Source: Candidatus Pacearchaeota archaeon
GTDB lineage: Archaea; Nanobdellota; Nanobdellia; Pacearchaeales; GW2011-AR1
Assembly: GCA_018303895.1 (NCBI GenBank)
Contig: JAGVXJ010000068.1
Coordinates: 1-25,492 of the forward strand
Direction of reading: 5' to 3'
DNA: 25,492 nt
Under the pieces are notes generated by a model. It did no database searches, was not told where the DNA came from, and saw only the letters and a program-made list of their open reading frames with translations. Both the position numbers and the translations under genes were made by a program. Of this stretch, positions 654 to 14,658 are shown in pieces (within the stretch, counting starts at the first letter, position 1; each line of letters begins with the position of its first letter).

Positions 654-697
654 ATTAAGCAAATCCTCCAAAAAAAGAAAGAAATTTTTTCATTTCT

Positions 698-773
698 TTC
701 ATTAATGCTCGTCCAGACTCTCACAAGCTCGGTCCCAACTTTGTAAGCAAAGATTGGCGCAGTGACTTCGCAT
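698..773 (+). repeat. Dispersed mini-element copy A (left arm 698-713, 44-nt hairpin insert 714-757, right arm 758-773)
   Basis: Arms ttcattaatgctcgtc and cgcagtgacttcgcat match 9279-9294 and 9297-9312 at 30 of 32 positions. The insert folds as ccaa-ctttg-taag-caaag-a-ttgg. Confidence 0.85.
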
Positions 774-775
774 GA

Positions 776-847
776 AGCGGGAGGCGAGAATCGAACTCGC
801 GTCTTGGGATCCACAATCCCACATTCTACCACTGAACTACAACCGCC
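776..847 (-). tRNA. tRNA-His (GTG) with encoded G-1; two acceptor-stem mismatches; no encoded CCA
   Basis: Minus strand reads G-GCGGTTG TA GTTC AGTGGTA GAAT G TGGGA TT GTG GA TCCCA AGAC GCGAG TTCGATT CTCGC CTCCCGC T. D, anticodon and T arms are canonical. Confidence 0.9.
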
Positions 848-1853: not shown

Positions 1854-2660
1854 TTAGATTATCTTCTGGATATAATTCACAAAATCTAAAACTCCTTCAG
1901 TGTAGGATTTTCTTGAAACTAGTCCGTTATTTTTTCTTACAAATCTTTTTACTTCTTCTCTCGCGTTTGCCGGACAACCAATCATTTTTGGTGAAGATTC
2001 TTGAAACATTAATATGTCTGGAATTTCATCTCCAAATGAAGCTATTCTATTTTCTCCCGCAATTTTTTTCATCGGATTACTCTTCAAAGCATTTTTTGGA
2101 GTGAGAATAATATTCCCATACTTTTTAGAAAAGAAAAGATTGTATTTTTCTCCGTAAACTTTTTTTAATCTTTCAAAAACATTTGAAGTAAATTCATCGT
2201 TCTCTGTTGGAATTCCTTGATTGATTACTCTTGGATAAACTGTCGCTGTAAAGATTCTGCTTTTTTCACAGTATGCTTCTTTAGAAAGCGAACTGAAAAA
2301 TTTTTCTGGACTTTTGACTAAGTCATCTGTAGATATAAAAGAAACTCTGTCACATAAATTTTTCAAACTTTTTTTCAGGTTCTCCCGCGAAAATTTAACA
2401 CCAAATGCATTTTCATCCAAATTTTTTGCCGGATTAAAAACTCCCTGCCCATTTTCGTAAACTATTAATCCATTAGTTTTTATCTGTGACCAAATATCAA
2501 TAATATTTTTCAATGATCGATTTGAATTCAAATGGAAATTTATTTCACCAAAATATTTTCTTAATTCCTTTTTTAATTCATCAACTGGGATATTAAATCG
2601 GTATTTTTCGTCAATAAAACACCCATCAATATCAAAAAAAACATCAGTCTTCTTCTTCAT
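1854..2660 (-). CDS. HAD-superfamily phosphatase, subclass IIB (Cof/SPP-like)
   Basis: Motif I FFDIDGC, motif II LNSNRS, motif III Lys (KSNP), motif IV FGDEIPD, then GCPANA. Confidence 0.85.
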   Translation of the reverse strand: MKKKTDVFFDIDGCFIDEKYRFNIPVDELKKELRKYFGEINFHLNSNRSLKNIIDIWSQIKTNGLIVYENGQGVFNPAKNLDENAFGVKFSRENLKKSLKNLCDRVSFISTDDLVKSPEKFFSSLSKEAYCEKSRIFTATVYPRVINQGIPTENDEFTSNVFERLKKVYGEKYNLFFSKKYGNIILTPKNALKSNPMKKIAGENRIASFGDEIPDILMFQESSPKMIGCPANAREEVKRFVRKNNGLVSRKSYTEGVLDFVNYIQKII

Positions 2661-3555
2661 TTTTCTTTCTCTTGATTATTAATTCGTAGACAATATTACT
2701 TCTTTTAGACGGTTTTAATGCTACACTTATTTCATCCATAGCCAAGATTGATTTAATCGTTTTAAAGAAAGATTTATATTTGATTTTATAATCTTCAACA
2801 AATTCTTTCGGGATACTTGCCCAATTTTCTGGGTTCTCTGAATATTTAATGAAAAGATTTGCAGAGTTATCTGTATTTCTCATCGGAACTTTCCGACCAT
2901 CAAAACCTAAACAATCTCTCATTTCAAGCCAATCAATCCAATCAAAACTTTGAACATATTTTGTATTCAATCCAATAGCATTAAGTTTTTCGATTCCTTT
3001 TTTCCCTGCGAAAGCCAAATAAATTTTTTCTACTTCAATTCCTTCTACTCTAAATCTATTTTCGATTTCATCTCCAAGTGTCCCACCTTCAAAAGTTCCG
3101 ACGTCCATCAAGTCAATTTTTTTCCCATACCGCTTTTTTATTTGTCTTACTTGCTCGTCCAATGAAACAGCTCTAAATCTTGGGCCAAGTTTGTGTGGTT
3201 CATTCAAATTGTGCGGATTCTGAATTCTTGTAACATGATAATTTCCGTCGGGTAAATCTTGGCAATAAACATCATCAAAACTTATAATCGGATTTGATCC
3301 ACCATTTTCCGAGATTACTTTTCTCAAGCCCGAATCGATTTCTCTATCTGAAATAAATTTCATTTCCCAAGAAAAATTTCCTTTTTCATCGCTATCTTCT
3401 CTCTTTCCAATCAAGTCCCGCATTTCAGTAAAGTAGTATTGCTCAAGGAGTCTCAATGATTGTTTAATCTCGTCACTTAAAGGAACATTATGTCTATTTT
3501 CCAATAAGGGAACCAATCCACCAGTTAAGAGATAAACTTTATTTCGAGAGGGCAT
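2644..3555 (-). CDS. Hypothetical protein with a divergent type I phosphoribosyltransferase-like motif
   Basis: KKIDLMDVGTFEGGTL resembles the PRPP loop hhhhDDhhxTGxT. The stop overlaps the HAD gene start by 17 nt, suggesting an operon. Confidence 0.55.
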   Translation of the reverse strand: MPSRNKVYLLTGGLVPLLENRHNVPLSDEIKQSLRLLEQYYFTEMRDLIGKREDSDEKGNFSWEMKFISDREIDSGLRKVISENGGSNPIISFDDVYCQDLPDGNYHVTRIQNPHNLNEPHKLGPRFRAVSLDEQVRQIKKRYGKKIDLMDVGTFEGGTLGDEIENRFRVEGIEVEKIYLAFAGKKGIEKLNAIGLNTKYVQSFDWIDWLEMRDCLGFDGRKVPMRNTDNSANLFIKYSENPENWASIPKEFVEDYKIKYKSFFKTIKSILAMDEISVALKPSKRSNIVYELIIKRKKNEEED

Positions 3556-3600
3556 GAAATTACCATGCCAACTTGTTTATATATTTTTCCAAAAATAGAA

Positions 3601-3636
3601 TTGTACTTTTCTTCTAATAATTTTCTGACCCTCTAT
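3601..3636 (-). repeat. Second copy of the last 12 codons of eIF5A (33 of 36 nt identical to 3678-3713)
   Basis: The copy reads ata gag ggt cag aaa att att aga aga aaa gta caa; the gene reads ata gag gga caa aaa att att aga aga aaa gta taa. Confidence 0.95.
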
Positions 3637-3669
3637 GCGAAGCGACTACGTTCGGCGAGCATTTCTGGA
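3635..3669 (-). repeat. Dispersed mini-element copy C
   Basis: Minus strand tccagaaatgctcgcc-gaa-cgtagtcgcttcgcat aligns with copies A and B. It contains GCGAAGC on the + strand at 3637-3643. Confidence 0.8.
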
Positions 3670-3677
3670 ACAAAAAA

Positions 3678-4070
3678 TTATACTTTTCTTCTAATAATTT
3701 TTTGTCCCTCTATATCCCAATATTCACAATTTTCGCCTTCAACTAATTGGGCGAACAATTCTTCATCAGGGCAAGGAATATCCATTGTTTCAAAATTTTC
3801 TAAATCCATAACACTCGCAACTTTATCTCCTTTTGAAAGAACTTGTGCTTTTCTTTTATCCACCATTGGAACTTCGAACTTATCATGTCCCGGGCTAACA
3901 AAAACTTTCTTGTTTCCTGCAATTAAAGGCATTGCTTCAATTCTACATTTTGCGTGTCCGTGCTTTCCTGTCTTTGAAACATCCATACTTCTTACAACGC
4001 AAGGAACTCCATCAACCATAATGTTGACGCCAGCTTTCGCCTCTGTTGCCTCTATAATTTTTAATACCAT
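3678..4070 (-). CDS. eif5a: Translation factor aIF5A/eIF5A (130 aa; start corrected to ATG 4070)
   Basis: Hypusine motif SKTGKHGHAK and C-terminal OB-fold text QVLS...VMDLENFET. The longer track ORF overlaps the promoter region and the divergent gene. Confidence 0.95.
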   Translation of the reverse strand: MVLKIIEATEAKAGVNIMVDGVPCVVRSMDVSKTGKHGHAKCRIEAMPLIAGNKKVFVSPGHDKFEVPMVDKRKAQVLSKGDKVASVMDLENFETMDIPCPDEELFAQLVEGENCEYWDIEGQKIIRRKV

Positions 4071-4189
4071 ACGGACAATAAAAAAAGTATGTTTATAAAG
4101 ATTTTTACTAAATTTTTCTATTTCTAAAAAATAAATATCCTTTAAATCAAAAGATTTAAAAGTCGTAATAACTGGAGAGTTAAAACAAA

Positions 4190-4954
4190 ATGGCTCAATC
4201 AACTCAATTCAGAAACGGGCAATTGCCAAGAACACCTTCAGAAAGTTTGGAATCTATCTCTTCCAATCAGATATCTCAACAAATTCCAGAAGCTGATTTG
4301 GAAATGATTTCAAAAAAAGATGCCGACACAATTCTTGCACTTGCCGGAAGTTTTTATGAAAGATTCATGACTCGTGAAGCGGAATTGAAAGAAAAAAATA
4401 GCCTGACTCAATCTCAAGATAAATTAGTTCAATTAATTTTAGGAGAGATGGTCCCAAAAACTTATCTTTATGATATTGCAGAGCAAAATGGTTTGCCAAG
4501 AGAATTAATAGACAACATGGCGAAGATTAGTCTTGACAGCGGAAGAAGAAATGAATTAATGCAAAAATACTCTATGGATTTTTCTAAATTAGCTCGTGCA
4601 AAATATCTATCTAAAATGTTTGAAACACTTCTTCCTAATGACCATTATAAGATTAGTGATATAGATCGCTACGAACATTTTGCTATTTCAATAGATGAAT
4701 CTAGCACAGTCAAAAAAGATTTATTCGAATTATTATATGATCGTTGGATTATGAAAGACAAAAATCTTAACAAATTAGTAAGAAAATCAAAAACAATAGC
4801 CCATTTTAATTTTTGTTATAATACTCTAAAAGGAGAGGTAAGTGATCCATTTATTCTAAATGTTTTTGACTTTATTTTGGAACATTCGGATTCTGGAATG
4901 AAACCTTATCTTGAACCTAAAAAAGGAGATCTTAAATTCTCTGGTGCAATCTAA
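4190..4954 (+). CDS. Hypothetical helical protein
   Basis: 254-aa ORF divergent from eIF5A; no family motif recognised. Confidence 0.7.
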   Translation: MAQSTQFRNGQLPRTPSESLESISSNQISQQIPEADLEMISKKDADTILALAGSFYERFMTREAELKEKNSLTQSQDKLVQLILGEMVPKTYLYDIAEQNGLPRELIDNMAKISLDSGRRNELMQKYSMDFSKLARAKYLSKMFETLLPNDHYKISDIDRYEHFAISIDESSTVKKDLFELLYDRWIMKDKNLNKLVRKSKTIAHFNFCYNTLKGEVSDPFILNVFDFILEHSDSGMKPYLEPKKGDLKFSGAI

Positions 4955-4995
4955 CCTTCGCAAACTTTTTTAAACACTCTTCTTATAATTTTTTC

Positions 4996-5718
4996 ATGGC
5001 TTTGCAAAAAAAAGATTTTGTTGAAATAGAATTCACTGGAAAATTGAAAGACGGCGAAGAAATTTTTGATTCAAACATTAAAGCAGACGTTGAAAAAATG
5101 CACGCTGGTCATAATCACAGCAAAGAAAAGCATGATATGAATGTCAAGCCATTTGTTTTTTGTTTGGGAGAAAAAATGTTTCTCGAGGGTGTTGAAGATT
5201 TTTTAATTGATAAACCAGAAAATTCTGCTTCGTATAATATCGAAATTTCTCCAGAAAAATCTTTTGGGGTTAGGAATCCAAAATTAGTTCAGGTTGTTCC
5301 GATAAAAGTTTTTCATGCTCAAAGAATAAATCCAACTCAGGGAGATGTTTTGAATTTCGACGGAAAATTGGGAAAAATTTTGTCAGTTTCTGGCGGAAGA
5401 GTAATTACTGATTTCAATCATCCTCTTGCTGGAAAAGAAGTTATTTACAAGGTTAATCTAAAAAGAAAAGTCACTGATATAAATGAAAAAGTAAAAGCTC
5501 TGTTTGATTTCTTTTTCAGACAAAATTTTGAGTTTTCAGTTTCAGCTAACAAATTAATTGTAGAAGTTCCGACTGGATATTCACAACTCTTGATTTTGTT
5601 CAAAGACAAATTCAAAGAAATTTTAGGTTTGGAACTTGAAGTAAAAGAACTTTCTCTTGAAAACAAAAAAGAAATTTCTCAAAAGATAAAAGATAAAGTT
5701 GAAGAGATGAAAAATTAA
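4996..5718 (+). CDS. slyD: FKBP-type peptidyl-prolyl isomerase, archaeal long type (SlyD-like)
   Basis: DFVEIEFTGK...FDSN, PEKSFGVRNP and DFNHPLAGKEV (FKBP/IF-domain signature), plus an archaeal C-terminal domain. Confidence 0.9.
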   Translation: MALQKKDFVEIEFTGKLKDGEEIFDSNIKADVEKMHAGHNHSKEKHDMNVKPFVFCLGEKMFLEGVEDFLIDKPENSASYNIEISPEKSFGVRNPKLVQVVPIKVFHAQRINPTQGDVLNFDGKLGKILSVSGGRVITDFNHPLAGKEVIYKVNLKRKVTDINEKVKALFDFFFRQNFEFSVSANKLIVEVPTGYSQLLILFKDKFKEILGLELEVKELSLENKKEISQKIKDKVEEMKN

Positions 5719-5761: not shown

Positions 5762-6289
5762 ATGTCTTTAGATAAAAAATTAGAATTAATGAATTTATTA
5801 CATCAGTTAAATGTTGTCCAAAAAGGAACTTTCTCTTTAACCAGCGGGAAAATTTCAAATTTTTATCTCGACATTAAATTAGCTTTGGGAAATCCCTTGG
5901 CATTAATTCTAATGAGAGACTTACTTGTAGAAAAATTTTCTGAAAAAACTAGTTGTGTTGTTGCTTGTGGTTATGGCGGAATCGCTCTTGCAAGTGCAAT
6001 CTCTACAAATTATAACCTTCCCTTGTCGATGGTTCGAGCAGAGGAACGAACTCACGGAATGAAAAAAGCAATTGAAGGTTACATTCCAAATCCAAGCGAT
6101 GTTTGTGCTTTTATCGACGATGTTTTTTCAACAGGGAAAAGCATTAATTTGTTAGCAGATAAAATCCAACTAACCAGCGCAAAAATTTCAGGAGCTTATG
6201 TTGTTGTCAATCGGACTGATTTAAACAATAGTGAAAAAAATATTCCCTTTTCTCTTTATTCTTTATTTTCCATAAAAGATTTAGTCTAA
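5762..6289 (+). CDS. pyrE: Orotate phosphoribosyltransferase-like
   Basis: GTFSLTSGKISNFYLDIK, RAEERTHG and the PRPP loop FIDDVFSTGKS. Confidence 0.85.
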   Translation: MSLDKKLELMNLLHQLNVVQKGTFSLTSGKISNFYLDIKLALGNPLALILMRDLLVEKFSEKTSCVVACGYGGIALASAISTNYNLPLSMVRAEERTHGMKKAIEGYIPNPSDVCAFIDDVFSTGKSINLLADKIQLTSAKISGAYVVVNRTDLNNSEKNIPFSLYSLFSIKDLV

Positions 6290-8532: not shown

Positions 8533-9285
8533 ATGATAATAAAATTACTTGTTGAGGGTGGAGAAATGAAACCAGGACCAACTCTTAGTCAGAAGCTTGG
8601 ACCAGCTGGAATAAATATGAATCAGGTTCTTCAAAAAATTAATGAATCGACTGCTGATTTCAAGGGACTTAAAGTTCCGGTAGAATTAGATGTTGACGTC
8701 GGAACAAAGATTTTTGAAGTTAAAGTTTTTTCACCACCAGTTTCAGAACTTTTGAAAAGAGAGCTTAAAATTGAAAAAGGATCCGGAACTCAAAAAAAAC
8801 AGTTTGCAGCAAATGCTTCAATTGAACAAATAATTTCTGTAGCTAAAACTAAATTTTCAAACATGCTTTGTAAGGATTTAAAATCTGCAGTTAAAACCGT
8901 CGTTGGAACTTGTGTTTCACTTGGAGTTTTAATTGAAAATAAATCACCTGTTGAAATAGAACATGAAATTGATGAAGGAAAATTTAACAAGGAAATCAAA
9001 GAAGAAAAAACAAAAACTTCTGAAGAAAAAAAGAAACAACTTGAAGAATATTTCTCTGATGTAAAGTCGCAACAAGATAAACTTCTCAAACAGATAAACT
9101 TCTCAAACAAGAACAAGCTGCTAAAGAAGCTGCTGCCGCTGCTGCACAAGCAACTGCCACGACTACGGCTGCTACTCCTGCTGCAACTTCTGCGACGGCA
9201 ACTACGCCAAATGCTCCTGCAAAAACAGCAGAAGCAAAAGCGCCCGCAAAAAAAGAAGCTAAGAAAAAGTAAAACTTTTTCATAA
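8533..9285 (+). CDS. rpl11: Ribosomal protein uL11 with a C-terminal extension; tail frameshifted by a 17-bp duplication (alternative-frame stop TAA 9270-9272)
   Basis: KLLVEGG...PGPTLSQKLGP, VPVELDVD, PPVSELLK and VVGTCVSLG. Confidence 0.93.
   Translation: MIIKLLVEGGEMKPGPTLSQKLGPAGINMNQVLQKINESTADFKGLKVPVELDVDVGTKIFEVKVFSPPVSELLKRELKIEKGSGTQKKQFAANASIEQIISVAKTKFSNMLCKDLKSAVKTVVGTCVSLGVLIENKSPVEIEHEIDEGKFNKEIKEEKTKTSEEKKKQLEEYFSDVKSQQDKLLKQINFSNKNKLLKKLLPLLHKQLPRLRLLLLLQLLRRQLRQMLLQKQQKQKRPQKKKLRKSKTFS
9075..9108 (+). repeat. Perfect 17-bp tandem duplication (agataaacttctcaaac x2) inside rpl11
   Basis: Seen directly at 9075-9091 and 9092-9108. Confidence 0.95.
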
Positions 9286-9312
9286 ATGCTCGTCGACGCA
9301 GTCACTTCGCAT
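9279..9312 (+). repeat. Dispersed mini-element copy B
   Basis: ttcataaatgctcgtc-ga-cgcagtcacttcgcat; 30 of 32 arm positions identical to copy A. Confidence 0.85.
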
Positions 9313-9370
9313 AAAGAAGAAATAAACTGCTTTTTGTGTTGTTTTTGAATGTTAATCAATCAGCAAATAA

Positions 9371-9476: not shown

Positions 9477-9592
9477 TTAGTAGTTGAATGAAATGAAACT
9501 ACTTCGGATTTGAAATTCAAATCCCGAGCGATTTCGCGAATAAGAAAAACGAATTGATTTAAACTGAGCGAGGTCGCGAGTTAGGTATCCCC
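9477..9592. mobile_element. Palindrome-rich ~110-bp element ending in a 9-bp copy of the tRNA-Pro 3' end (att-like)
   Basis: ggtatcccc occurs at 9467-9475 and 9584-9592. Stems at 9479-9503 and 9506-9524. Internal repeat gagcgaNNtcgcga at 9526-9539 and 9566-9579. Confidence 0.5.
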
Positions 9593-9673
9593 CAAATTTT
9601 ATCGCTCAATCAAAAATAGAATAATTTAAAAACCATTTTTGTAATCTATTATTATATTATCTAGAAACTAACC

Positions 9674-9892
9674 ATGACAAAAACAAAAAAAGTAAAAGCA
9701 GCCGGAAGATTTGGCGTCAGATATGGAAAGAAATCAAGATCCAAACTTGCTTCTGTTGAATCTTTTCAAAGAAAAAAACAGAAATGTCCTTTCTGTAAAA
9801 AATTAGGTGTGAAAAGAAAATCAAAAGGAGTATGGCATTGTTTGAAGTGCGGAAAAAAATTTGCTTCAAATACTTACTATCTAACTAATTAA
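9674..9892 (+). CDS. rpl37ae: Ribosomal protein eL43 (L37ae)
   Basis: GRFGVRYG and the zinc ribbon CPFC...GVWHCLKC. Confidence 0.95.
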   Translation: MTKTKKVKAAGRFGVRYGKKSRSKLASVESFQRKKQKCPFCKKLGVKRKSKGVWHCLKCGKKFASNTYYLTN

Positions 9893-9893
9893 A

Positions 9894-10031
9894 ATGACAA
9901 ACTACAAGTGTTTTAAATGTGGAAAGAAAATTGCTAATACAGCGTTGGATCAAAGATTCGTTTGTCCTTCATGTGGAAGTAAAATTTTCTACAAACCTCG
10001 AACGCATACTCGAAGAGTGAAAGCTGAATAA
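9894..10031 (+). CDS. rpoP: RNA polymerase subunit P (Rpo12), 45 aa; absent from the ORF track
   Basis: Hand translation MTNYKCFKCGKKIANTALDQRFVCPSCGSKIFYKPRTHTRRVKAE; conserved position after rpl37ae. Confidence 0.93.
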   Translation: MTNYKCFKCGKKIANTALDQRFVCPSCGSKIFYKPRTHTRRVKAE

Positions 10032-10032
10032 A

Positions 10033-10353
10033 ATGTCCGACAAAGAACAAAAGATTCAGGAGTTGCAATTTTTTGAACAGAATTTACAAAATATTCTCTA
10101 TCAAAAACAAGCGTTTGAACTCGAACTTTCTGAAACTCAATCAGCGATGGAAGAATTAAAAAATTCCAACGGAGAAGTTTTCAAAATTGTTGGTCAGCTT
10201 ATGATTAAATCCAGTTCTCAAAAAATTAAAGAAGAATTAGATAACAAAGAAAAATTAATTTTAATCAGAATAAAATCTTTAGAAAAACAAGAAAAAGAAT
10301 TTAATGAAAAAGTTTCTTTTCTGAGAGAAGAAATCATAAATTCTAAAAAATAA
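10033..10353 (+). CDS. pfdB: Prefoldin beta subunit
   Basis: Coiled coils flanking the beta-hairpin VFKIVGQLMIK. Confidence 0.9.
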   Translation: MSDKEQKIQELQFFEQNLQNILYQKQAFELELSETQSAMEELKNSNGEVFKIVGQLMIKSSSQKIKEELDNKEKLILIRIKSLEKQEKEFNEKVSFLREEIINSKK

Positions 10354-13765: not shown

Positions 13766-13816
13766 TTATCTCTCCCCATAAAAAATTCTTTCGTAAATTC
13801 TCGTCCATAATTTTTT
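13766..13816 (-). repeat. Second copy of the last 17 codons of the PAP2 gene (47 of 51 nt identical to 14038-14088)
   Basis: The copy encodes KKLWTRIYERIFYGER*; the gene encodes KKLWTRIYERIFYGEK*. Confidence 0.95.
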
Positions 13817-13818
13817 GT

Positions 13819-14037
13819 TCTTCATGGAAAGTTAATCGTTAACTTTCTATAGCGTAGCGAGAAAAATTATTTAGATTTTTCTTCATGGAAAGTTAATCGT
13901 TAACTTTCTATAGCGTAGCGAGAAAAATTATTTAGATTTTTCTTCATGGAAAGTTACTTGTTAACTTTCTATATGTTTTGTTCACAAAATATTTCTGAAC
14001 GAATCTTATTCGTTCTATAGCGTAGCGAGAAAAAAAA
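13819..14037. repeat. 61-bp tandem repeat array (starts 13819, 13880, 13941) plus a variant fourth module; hairpin + TATAGCGTAGCGAG units
   Basis: Stem gaaagttaa-tcg-ttaactttc. Tail ttctatagcgtagcgagaaaaa at 13845, 13906 and 14013. Variant stem gaacgaat-ctt-attcgttc at 13997-14015. Confidence 0.95.
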
Positions 14038-14658
14038 TTATTTTTCTCCATAGAAAATTCTTTCGTAAATTCTCGTCCATAATTTTTTTTCTTTTTCCCC
14101 ATACATAACAAATTCTCCAATCAAGTATCCGATTATTGCGCCGAATATTACATCACTTAAGAAATGAACTCCAAAGTATACTCGTGAAAAAGCAATCAGA
14201 CATGCAAAAACAATCCAGACATATTTGAATCTTGGAAATTCTTTACTCAAAATTGGAATTGAACAAAATGCAAGCATTGCTTGAAATGAAGGGAAAGAAT
14301 AATTCCAAATAATAAAATTTTCTTTTATCAATAAAGGTAAAGTTTCAACTATTTCTTGTTGAAATGGCCTTAATCTTTGAACCCCAACCTTTAATAAAAA
14401 ACTTACCATCACTGCGAGCAGAGAAGATACCCACAACGGCAAAACCCATTTTCTTTTGTGTTCTCGCCACATAAACAAGCTCGTTAAAATTAATAAAATA
14501 ATTACTTCTGAACTTACAAAAGTAACTCCCAAAAAAACTTCATCCAGAATATCTCCCCTCAAAAAAGAAACTTTCTCGACGATTTGTGCATCAAAATACA
14601 AACTTATCAGCCCAACTATCACTGCAATTAAAAGAATAATTATTCCTTTTTTTTTCAT
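14038..14658 (-). CDS. PAP2-family membrane phosphatase with a degenerate C2 motif
   Basis: C1 KVGVQRLRP, C2 SFPSFQ (normally PSGH), C3 SRVYFGVHFLSD; several TM helices. Confidence 0.85.
   Translation of the reverse strand: MKKKGIIILLIAVIVGLISLYFDAQIVEKVSFLRGDILDEVFLGVTFVSSEVIILLILTSLFMWREHKRKWVLPLWVSSLLAVMVSFLLKVGVQRLRPFQQEIVETLPLLIKENFIIWNYSFPSFQAMLAFCSIPILSKEFPRFKYVWIVFACLIAFSRVYFGVHFLSDVIFGAIIGYLIGEFVMYGEKEKKLWTRIYERIFYGEK

Follow-up and report, generated by a model that had tools for sequence, protein, structure and literature searches.

A short palindrome-bearing insertion and an orphan gene end behind the aIF5A gene of a groundwater DPANN archaeon

The window analyzed here is a 25,492-nt stretch of DNA that makes up contig C11 of G000, a metagenome-assembled genome (MAG) labeled Candidatus Pacearchaeota. 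The G000 assembly totals 792 kb in 82 contigs, with 32% GC and an estimated completeness of 71%. It comes from a small groundwater DPANN archaeon, whose relatives have genomes of 0.4-1.4 Mb and carry the labels Woesearchaeota, Pacearchaeota or Nanoarchaeota. The window encodes an intact aIF5A, and the end of this gene occurs a second time just downstream, behind a 41-nt insert that holds a T-run and a GC-rich imperfect palindrome ("element C") (Table 1). We refer to the translated copy as the working end and to the other as the orphan. Next comes a 303-aa gene, the ancestral neighbor of aIF5A in the clade of G000. General archaeal promoter geometry suggests a promoter role for the TATA-like box in front of it.

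Table 1. Positions of the features discussed, in window coordinates
Feature	Position	Strand	Evidence or remark
aIF5A gene, 130 aa, intact	3678..4070	-	Pfam IF5A-like_N, E = 2.5e-12; orthologues in relatives 75-88% identical
aIF5A working gene end (copy 2), last 11 codons + TAA	3678..3713	-	repeat comparison
41-nt insert: T6 run (3672-3677) right after the stop codon, then GC-rich imperfect palindrome (element C)	3637..3677	-	absent in L078
aIF5A orphan gene end (copy 1), TAA decayed to CAA, untranslated	3601..3636	-	abuts the distal palindrome arm
Match to covariance model R1 at aIF5A	3628..3674	+ (opposite to aIF5A)	53.4 bits, E = 1e-10
TATA-like box of the downstream 303-aa gene, ~25 nt before the ATG at 3555	3576..3583	-	by sequence; conserved in L078
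Downstream gene, 303 aa, no Pfam match	2644..3555	-	same neighbor after aIF5A in L078
88-nt family member	693..780	-	abuts the 3' end of tRNA-His; R1 36.6 bits
Best-scoring family member	9274..9319	-	R1 66.5 bits; overlaps the stop of the uL11 gene
uL11 gene	8533-9285	+	Pfam Ribosomal_L11
PAP2 locus: gene end 14038-14088, 221-nt insert of 61-nt units, orphan 13766-13816	13766..14088	-	47/51 identical

The two aIF5A ends form direct repeats identical at 33 of 36 positions, and both read IEGQKIIRRKV on the minus strand. An earlier note on this DNA had described the duplication with exactly this identity, with its three differences (GGA/GGT, CAA/CAG and TAA/CAA) and with the T-run and element C in the 41 nt between the copies, and all of this is borne out. 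The pair can be extended to 45 nt at 87% identity (3592-3636 / 3669-3713), the additional 9 nt being T-rich and possibly matching by chance. A 33/36 repeat within 300 nt was not obtained in any of 100 dinucleotide shuffles of the window; in the real window such repeats occur only at aIF5A and at the PAP2 locus. The region 3400-3900, which includes the insert, has no match in Rfam 15 (best score 20 bits against a gathering score of 43).

The junction is real. Logan contigs from other samples (groundwater and soil) and from two other studies span the whole filled structure unchanged. Record 9 of X3 spans 2952-4168, gap-free and with 1 difference; record 17 of X5 matches 3244-3845 throughout. The earlier note had made its observation conditional on support for the junction, and these independently assembled contigs provide it. 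A joint that skips 77 nt, as in a collapsed allele, is absent among the joints listed for the contigs of four runs. The longest exact run common to both copies is 22 nt, below usual assembly word lengths, so confusion of the two aIF5A ends by an assembler is unlikely.

The nearest lineage that we found, L078 (88% amino acid identity), has the same genes on both sides of the site at ~80% nucleotide identity. The filled stretch is the only large gap between the two sequences, and in L078 the gene end occurs just once. Because L078 shows the same gene order without the 77 bases of insert plus orphan, these bases are, by this comparison, an insertion at the gene end. The earlier note proposed sister comparison as a way to recognize the native copy. 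The G000 orphan retains the CAG codon of L078, where the working copy has CAA, in keeping with import of the latter, but G000 and L078 are too divergent at ~80% nucleotide identity for an imported tract to be visible.

We examined ~175 related aIF5A loci from GTDB species genomes and metagenomes (Woesearchaeota- and Pacearchaeota-type MAGs). Most relatives have the usual arrangement, with an L40e gene immediately after aIF5A. In thirteen lineages aIF5A is followed by an orphan end, set off from the gene by a short GC-rich spacer that measures 20-48 nt in nine of them and 234-268 nt in two. The duplicated lineages are spread across the aIF5A tree, every one of them has a close sister free of the duplication, and 11 changes are required to explain the 11 duplicated rows that the tree took in. 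In 12 lineages the orphan starts at the bases GARGG and runs through the stop codon (now CAA in G000). A candidate role of the orphan as promoter of the next gene was dropped, as TATA-like boxes of their own precede both L40e and the 303-aa gene, downstream of the orphan. A mini-ORF through the orphan was also considered and set aside: an in-frame ATG is present at PAP2 and in L103, and absent at aIF5A here and in most lineages.

The two copies in these 12 lineages differ at 70 bases, 53 of which are third codon positions, and the differences include CGN/AGR and CTN/TTR switches. Only one of the 70 changes the product, the TAA to CAA change of G000. Random substitution would be expected to give 49 product changes on average (P < 5e-5, a value that overstates independence since the duplicated lineages are related). 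The 11 lineages other than G000 contribute 67 differences without any product change, whereas G000 has three, one of which destroys the stop of the orphan (P = 0.12, not significant). The term "synonymous recoding" used in the earlier note is overwhelmingly supported across the relatives and lacks significance for the window by itself.

The GC-rich part of the aIF5A insert is one member of a multi-copy family of imperfect palindromes. A covariance model (R1), built from 19 copies after a fuzzy search, finds 24-27 matches in the 0.79-Mb MAG. Four of the members are 88-nt versions with an extra internal segment, and there are modular relatives with shared termini and a different middle. In the family alignment (A1) 93.9% of cells are paired and six pairs have compensatory changes on both sides; the aIF5A copy carries one inserted nucleotide and a G-to-A substitution in its inner stem. 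Folding as RNA or as DNA is no better than that of shuffled sequence, so the hairpin is putative and is suggested by covariation among copies only. The family is patchy, with 8, 2 and 2 matches in three other genera and none in 57 further relatives, a genome of the same genus included.

Family members sit at the ends of several different genes in G000. Of 16 copies that could be placed, at least 12 follow a stop codon at a distance of 0-16 nt and are antisense to the gene concerned. Several stand between two repeats of the sequence that they entered (18-57 nt), one of which is always in direct contact with the palindrome; at other copies, many of them high-scoring, flanking repeats are undetectable. 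Two further members lie in the window (Table 1). The 88-nt member begins right at the tRNA-His 3' end (gene at 774-847) in the same orientation as the gene, and mismatches in the acceptor stem of this tRNA were flagged in the earlier reading; the tRNA end may have been replaced. The uL11 gene next to the best-scoring member encodes a 250-aa product with a long Lys/Ala-rich C-terminal tail past the Pfam domains.

The R1 model finds no family member at 160 other aIF5A loci. The other aIF5A lineages use different spacers, and at least two unrelated spacer families occur at this gene. By eye, ten of these lineages appear to share a T-run followed ~11 nt later by an AGTC/ATTC-like motif in the spacer. 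The spacer of G003 is single-copy within its genome.

The second such repeat in the window is at the PAP2 gene, where 17 codons including the stop recur 272 nt downstream. Between the copies stand three tandem units of 61 nt, which represent a related module. The copies have three synonymous differences and one Lys/Arg difference, and the stop is kept. An arm of the element supplies an in-frame ATG for a 19-codon mini-ORF through the orphan. Among the contigs listed from other runs, none covers the PAP2 span 13811-14059. L102, G020 and this PAP2 locus have arrays with more than one orphan and spacer. In the array of G020 (C26, 34520-34760; L050) three target copies alternate with two palindromes at a period of 93 nt; its target is a gene end whose stop differs between the copies (TAA/TAA/TGA).

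Some other loci have a comparable layout. Contig C27 of G000 has an exact 33-nt repeat of the 3' part of a tRNA 89 nt downstream (9037-9069 / 9126-9158) with a 56-nt AT-rich spacer, a classical att-like layout in miniature. On C30 (6013-6046 / 6081-6114) the stop/start overlap (ATGA) of two genes is split by a 34-nt spacer plus a 34-nt copy of the junction, such that the first gene retains its end and the second its upstream region. In the metagenome contig L126, ~270 nt past the aIF5A stop, lies an insertion of 304 nt that comes with an exact repeat of 41 nt; the sister L132 has the empty site. A 100-aa ORF in this insertion enters the second repeat copy in frame and ends with the last 12 residues of aIF5A.

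Comparisons between close sisters suggest which copy is foreign in some relatives. L108 and L189 are 93% identical in the gene bodies (aIF5A and L40e), 70% in the first copy (the working end), 56% in the spacer and 100% in the orphan and downstream. Since the working end and spacer are diverged while the body is at 93% and the orphan at 100%, these values indicate that in each of the two lineages the working end and spacer were imported and the orphan is native. The orphan of L108 has four differences from the working end of its sister L109 and seven from its own working end. First copies in relatives are up to 27% diverged against a background of 7%. In L107 vs L218 and L102 vs L207 the spacers are 93-98% identical and the gene bodies 80-85%, which argues for horizontal spread. 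A working end borne by the element is supported by L108/L189 and L107/L218, and first copies in two relatives appear to be imports. L102/L101 and L082/L086 have the opposite pattern, with a first copy that looks native, and the direction of import seems to be not uniform, or not always readable, as it is not in G000. By analogy with L108/L189 and L107/L218, the working end of G000 probably came in with the insert. A search for a donor allele of the G000 aIF5A end found none.

We favor, with confidence that is evenly balanced, the interpretation that a miniature non-coding insertion left its footprint at the aIF5A stop, and that the working end, the T-run and the palindrome were imported as one unit. 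The palindrome, a small mobile element whose T-rich arm on the gene side now comes after the stop codon, would first have inserted behind a stop codon in some strain. This allele would then have entered a related lineage, with the gene-side join made by homology and the distal palindrome arm attached just before the GAG GGN codons of the resident gene. The native end would thereby have been displaced and left untranslated, and its decay would have begun with the TAA to CAA change. The outcome would be no different if a tiny circle of gene end and spacer had integrated in the Campbell manner. De Vries and Wackernagel reportedly described in 2002 homology-facilitated illegitimate recombination in transformable bacteria, in which one homologous anchor and one illegitimate or microhomology join insert foreign DNA. 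Such an event would likewise leave the imported end followed by an insert and then by the native end that it displaced. It is not known to occur in DPANN archaea.

The data show the insertion itself, the repeat family, the recurrence at aIF5A, conservation of a coding type in the orphans of relatives, and imported first copies in two of these relatives. Import of the first copy in G000, the way in which it was joined and any enzyme involved are what we infer, and several observations weigh against them. The pattern of G000 taken singly is the non-significant one noted above, with one of its three differences non-synonymous in kind, and the two sister pairs with a native-looking first copy point the other way. 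With one palindrome family at the ends of different G000 genes, each case would need its own donor allele. The repeat family is not tied to any enzyme, and its fold is no better than that of shuffles. Homology with one illegitimate join does not itself explain the GARGG junctions at aIF5A.

A possible reading, though one that we consider on the unlikely side, is duplication in place. Here a MITE-like palindrome, served by a trans-acting transposase or by the repair of nicks that are widely staggered, would duplicate 18-57 nt of its target, and the three differences would arise later. This would fit the occurrence of the same family between repeats of unrelated G000 targets, some of them exact (18 nt on C3, 22 nt on C19, 30 nt on C1), and the 88-nt and modular versions with common termini, as in MITE families. 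The three differences of G000, loss of the orphan stop included, are consistent with drift. Duplication in place does not account for the relatives: the 11 other lineages have 67 differences without product change, the first copies of close sisters have diverged much more than their gene bodies, and the repeats invariably reach precisely to the stop codon. Many high-scoring family copies, too, have no flanking repeat.

There are precedents for duplication in place. IS1549 and IS1634 have similarly long and variable flanking repeats (8-514 bp), but these are insertion sequences of 1.5-2 kb with a DDE transposase (PMC2266710), and DDE_Tnp_1 is not found in the G000 assembly. Insertion with long target duplication (ILTD) of restriction-modification genes (PMC2853133) is an empty-site insertion with repeats of more than 30 bp that often lie over a stop or start codon, with no mobility gene in the insert. 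The aIF5A locus resembles it in its repeats of 36-45 nt, its single copy at the empty site of L078 and its want of a mobility gene. ILTD differs in that it involves bacterial units of kilobases with near-identical repeats, whereas the inserts here are tiny and in the relatives one repeat is far more diverged than background. REP and MITE sequences of prokaryotes and the GC-rich hairpin clusters in organelle genomes that are AT-rich (reviewed in PMC3184786) are alike in being multi-copy GC-rich palindromes, post-stop, with an orientation bias and modular variants, as found here in a 32% GC genome. They differ in having no or a short fixed target duplication, which contrasts with flanking repeats of 18-57 nt at some copies of our family and undetectable ones at others, and in having no recoded gene ends.

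We also looked for enzymes and carriers. In the 71%-complete G000 assembly DDE_Tnp_1 and Cas1 were not found, which weighs further against duplication in place, and TnpB was below the cut-off. A Y1_Tnp fragment is present at the end of contig C15. Y1 occurs in three of four repeat-positive genomes vs 14 of 57 negative ones, a weak association, and at nine loci no palindrome lies beside a Y1 gene. The only Phage_integrase match in G000 is a tyrosine recombinase on contig C9. A pattern scan of IMG/VR for viral carriers gave 0 hits.

The earlier note suggested an att-like scar, and a larger integrase element (provirus or plasmid) could have used the aIF5A 3' end as attB and been deleted, leaving attL and attR 41 nt apart. 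Part of this suggestion stands. As with gene-end-restoring elements, the repeats cover a 3'-distal target up to the gene end, stopping at the stop codon like attL/attR cores, and relatives have the empty site. Integrative mobile elements (iMGEs) of archaea have att cores of 29-69 bp, target the 3'-distal portion of tRNA or protein genes, for which they supply a substitute end, and can form arrays where a single site is used (Krupovic et al. 2019, PMC6563490). They share with our loci direct repeats of 30-50 nt that reach the gene end, an intact gene with the displaced end downstream, an empty site in relatives, and arrays by re-use of a site (L102, G020 and PAP2 here). They differ in cargo, which is kilobases with an integrase there and a non-coding palindrome of 20-48 nt here, and here one palindrome family occurs at several genes in one genome. 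A scar of this kind is improbable. The 20-48 nt spacers of nine among 13 lineages are too uniform for random internal deletions, and the insert belongs to a family of 46-nt elements with many copies. There is no recombinase in the 41-nt insert and no integrase nearby, and the G000 assembly holds no third copy of the aIF5A end as a far att site. Among the ~175 loci none has a kilobase integrase element between the repeats, the largest inserts being 234 and 268 nt.

The earlier note alternatively proposed a deletion switch. The locus could toggle the aIF5A C-terminus and terminator, or the orphan could be a functional spare end, with selection keeping orphans intact since cassettes are often excised. 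The orphans of relatives do keep their frame, residues and stop, and scattered presence over the tree would fit frequent loss through the repeats. We regard this as very doubtful, as the stop of the G000 orphan is gone, a regulated recombinase is absent, and the independent contigs of four runs have the filled form only, with no collapsed form among the joints listed. The collapsed product, which would end ...RRKVQFYFWKNI and a stop (VQFYFWKNI, then stop) with the extension that the earlier note gave, would bear eight foreign residues. The predicted read-through into a PRTase-HAD-udp cluster has no support: the collapsed gene would stop after these residues, and the downstream gene has its own TATA-like box in the filled and in the empty lineage.

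Least credible, to the point of being negligible, is that the repeat arose when a mixture of strains was assembled, or that it is a template/variable repeat (TR/VR) pair like those of DGRs. G000 is indeed a MAG in many fragments, in which other exact repeats look suspicious, and it encodes DGR-type reverse transcriptases with true TR/VR pairs on contigs C20 and C34. Both readings are rejected: the independent contigs agree, the two copies share an exact run of only 22 nt, the aIF5A repeat is 36 nt on a contig (C11) without a reverse transcriptase, and differences between the copies have no adenine bias (A is involved in 29 vs 25 of 70 in either copy).

The three DGR-type reverse transcriptases of G000 are on other contigs (C20, C29 and C34). 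The A-biased TR/VR pairs beside them lie on C20 (3520-3578 / 4005-4063, reverse transcriptase 4306-5023) and on C34 (4565-4644 / 4892-4971, reverse transcriptase 3767-4102); on C29 the gene is at 9483-10133. G000 also contains exact 79-nt repeats on C8 (3622-3700 / 3796-3874) and C9 (3523-3601 / 3670-3748), and exact tandem duplications of 56 and 71 nt on C39 (8576-8687) and C6 (3723-3864). Some of the repeats on these four contigs are inside ORFs, and they may be assembly artefacts or real tandem repeats.

The recurrence of the layout points away from a genetic switch and towards a poorly known class of very small insertions at gene ends. We tentatively extend this to the group, with less confidence than we have in the single locus. 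DPANN archaea of the Woesearchaeota and Pacearchaeota type may carry ultra-small non-coding cassettes of 60-100 nt, each consisting of the recoded last 10-17 codons and stop of a gene, a T-run and a palindromic module. Such cassettes would home to the stops of essential genes, replace the resident end and move between lineages, and would be gained and lost too fast for the displaced ends to decay. Their mobility could perhaps come from Campbell-type integration of tiny circles or from one-ended joining at the palindrome. We found no description of elements of this kind in the literature on DPANN.

For the single locus the consequence is modest. The present-day effect of the insert is likely small, as aIF5A is intact and its 3' region probably gains only a terminator-like T6 run, next to the palindrome. 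For annotation, orphan ends and post-stop palindromes are not to be read as switches, pseudogenes or assembly errors. If import is true, essential translation genes of genome-reduced archaea would be repeatedly edited at their 3' ends by mobile DNA that encodes nothing. This would offer a handle on gene flow and recombination in uncultivated DPANN archaea, and it may represent a new mode of DNA mobility.
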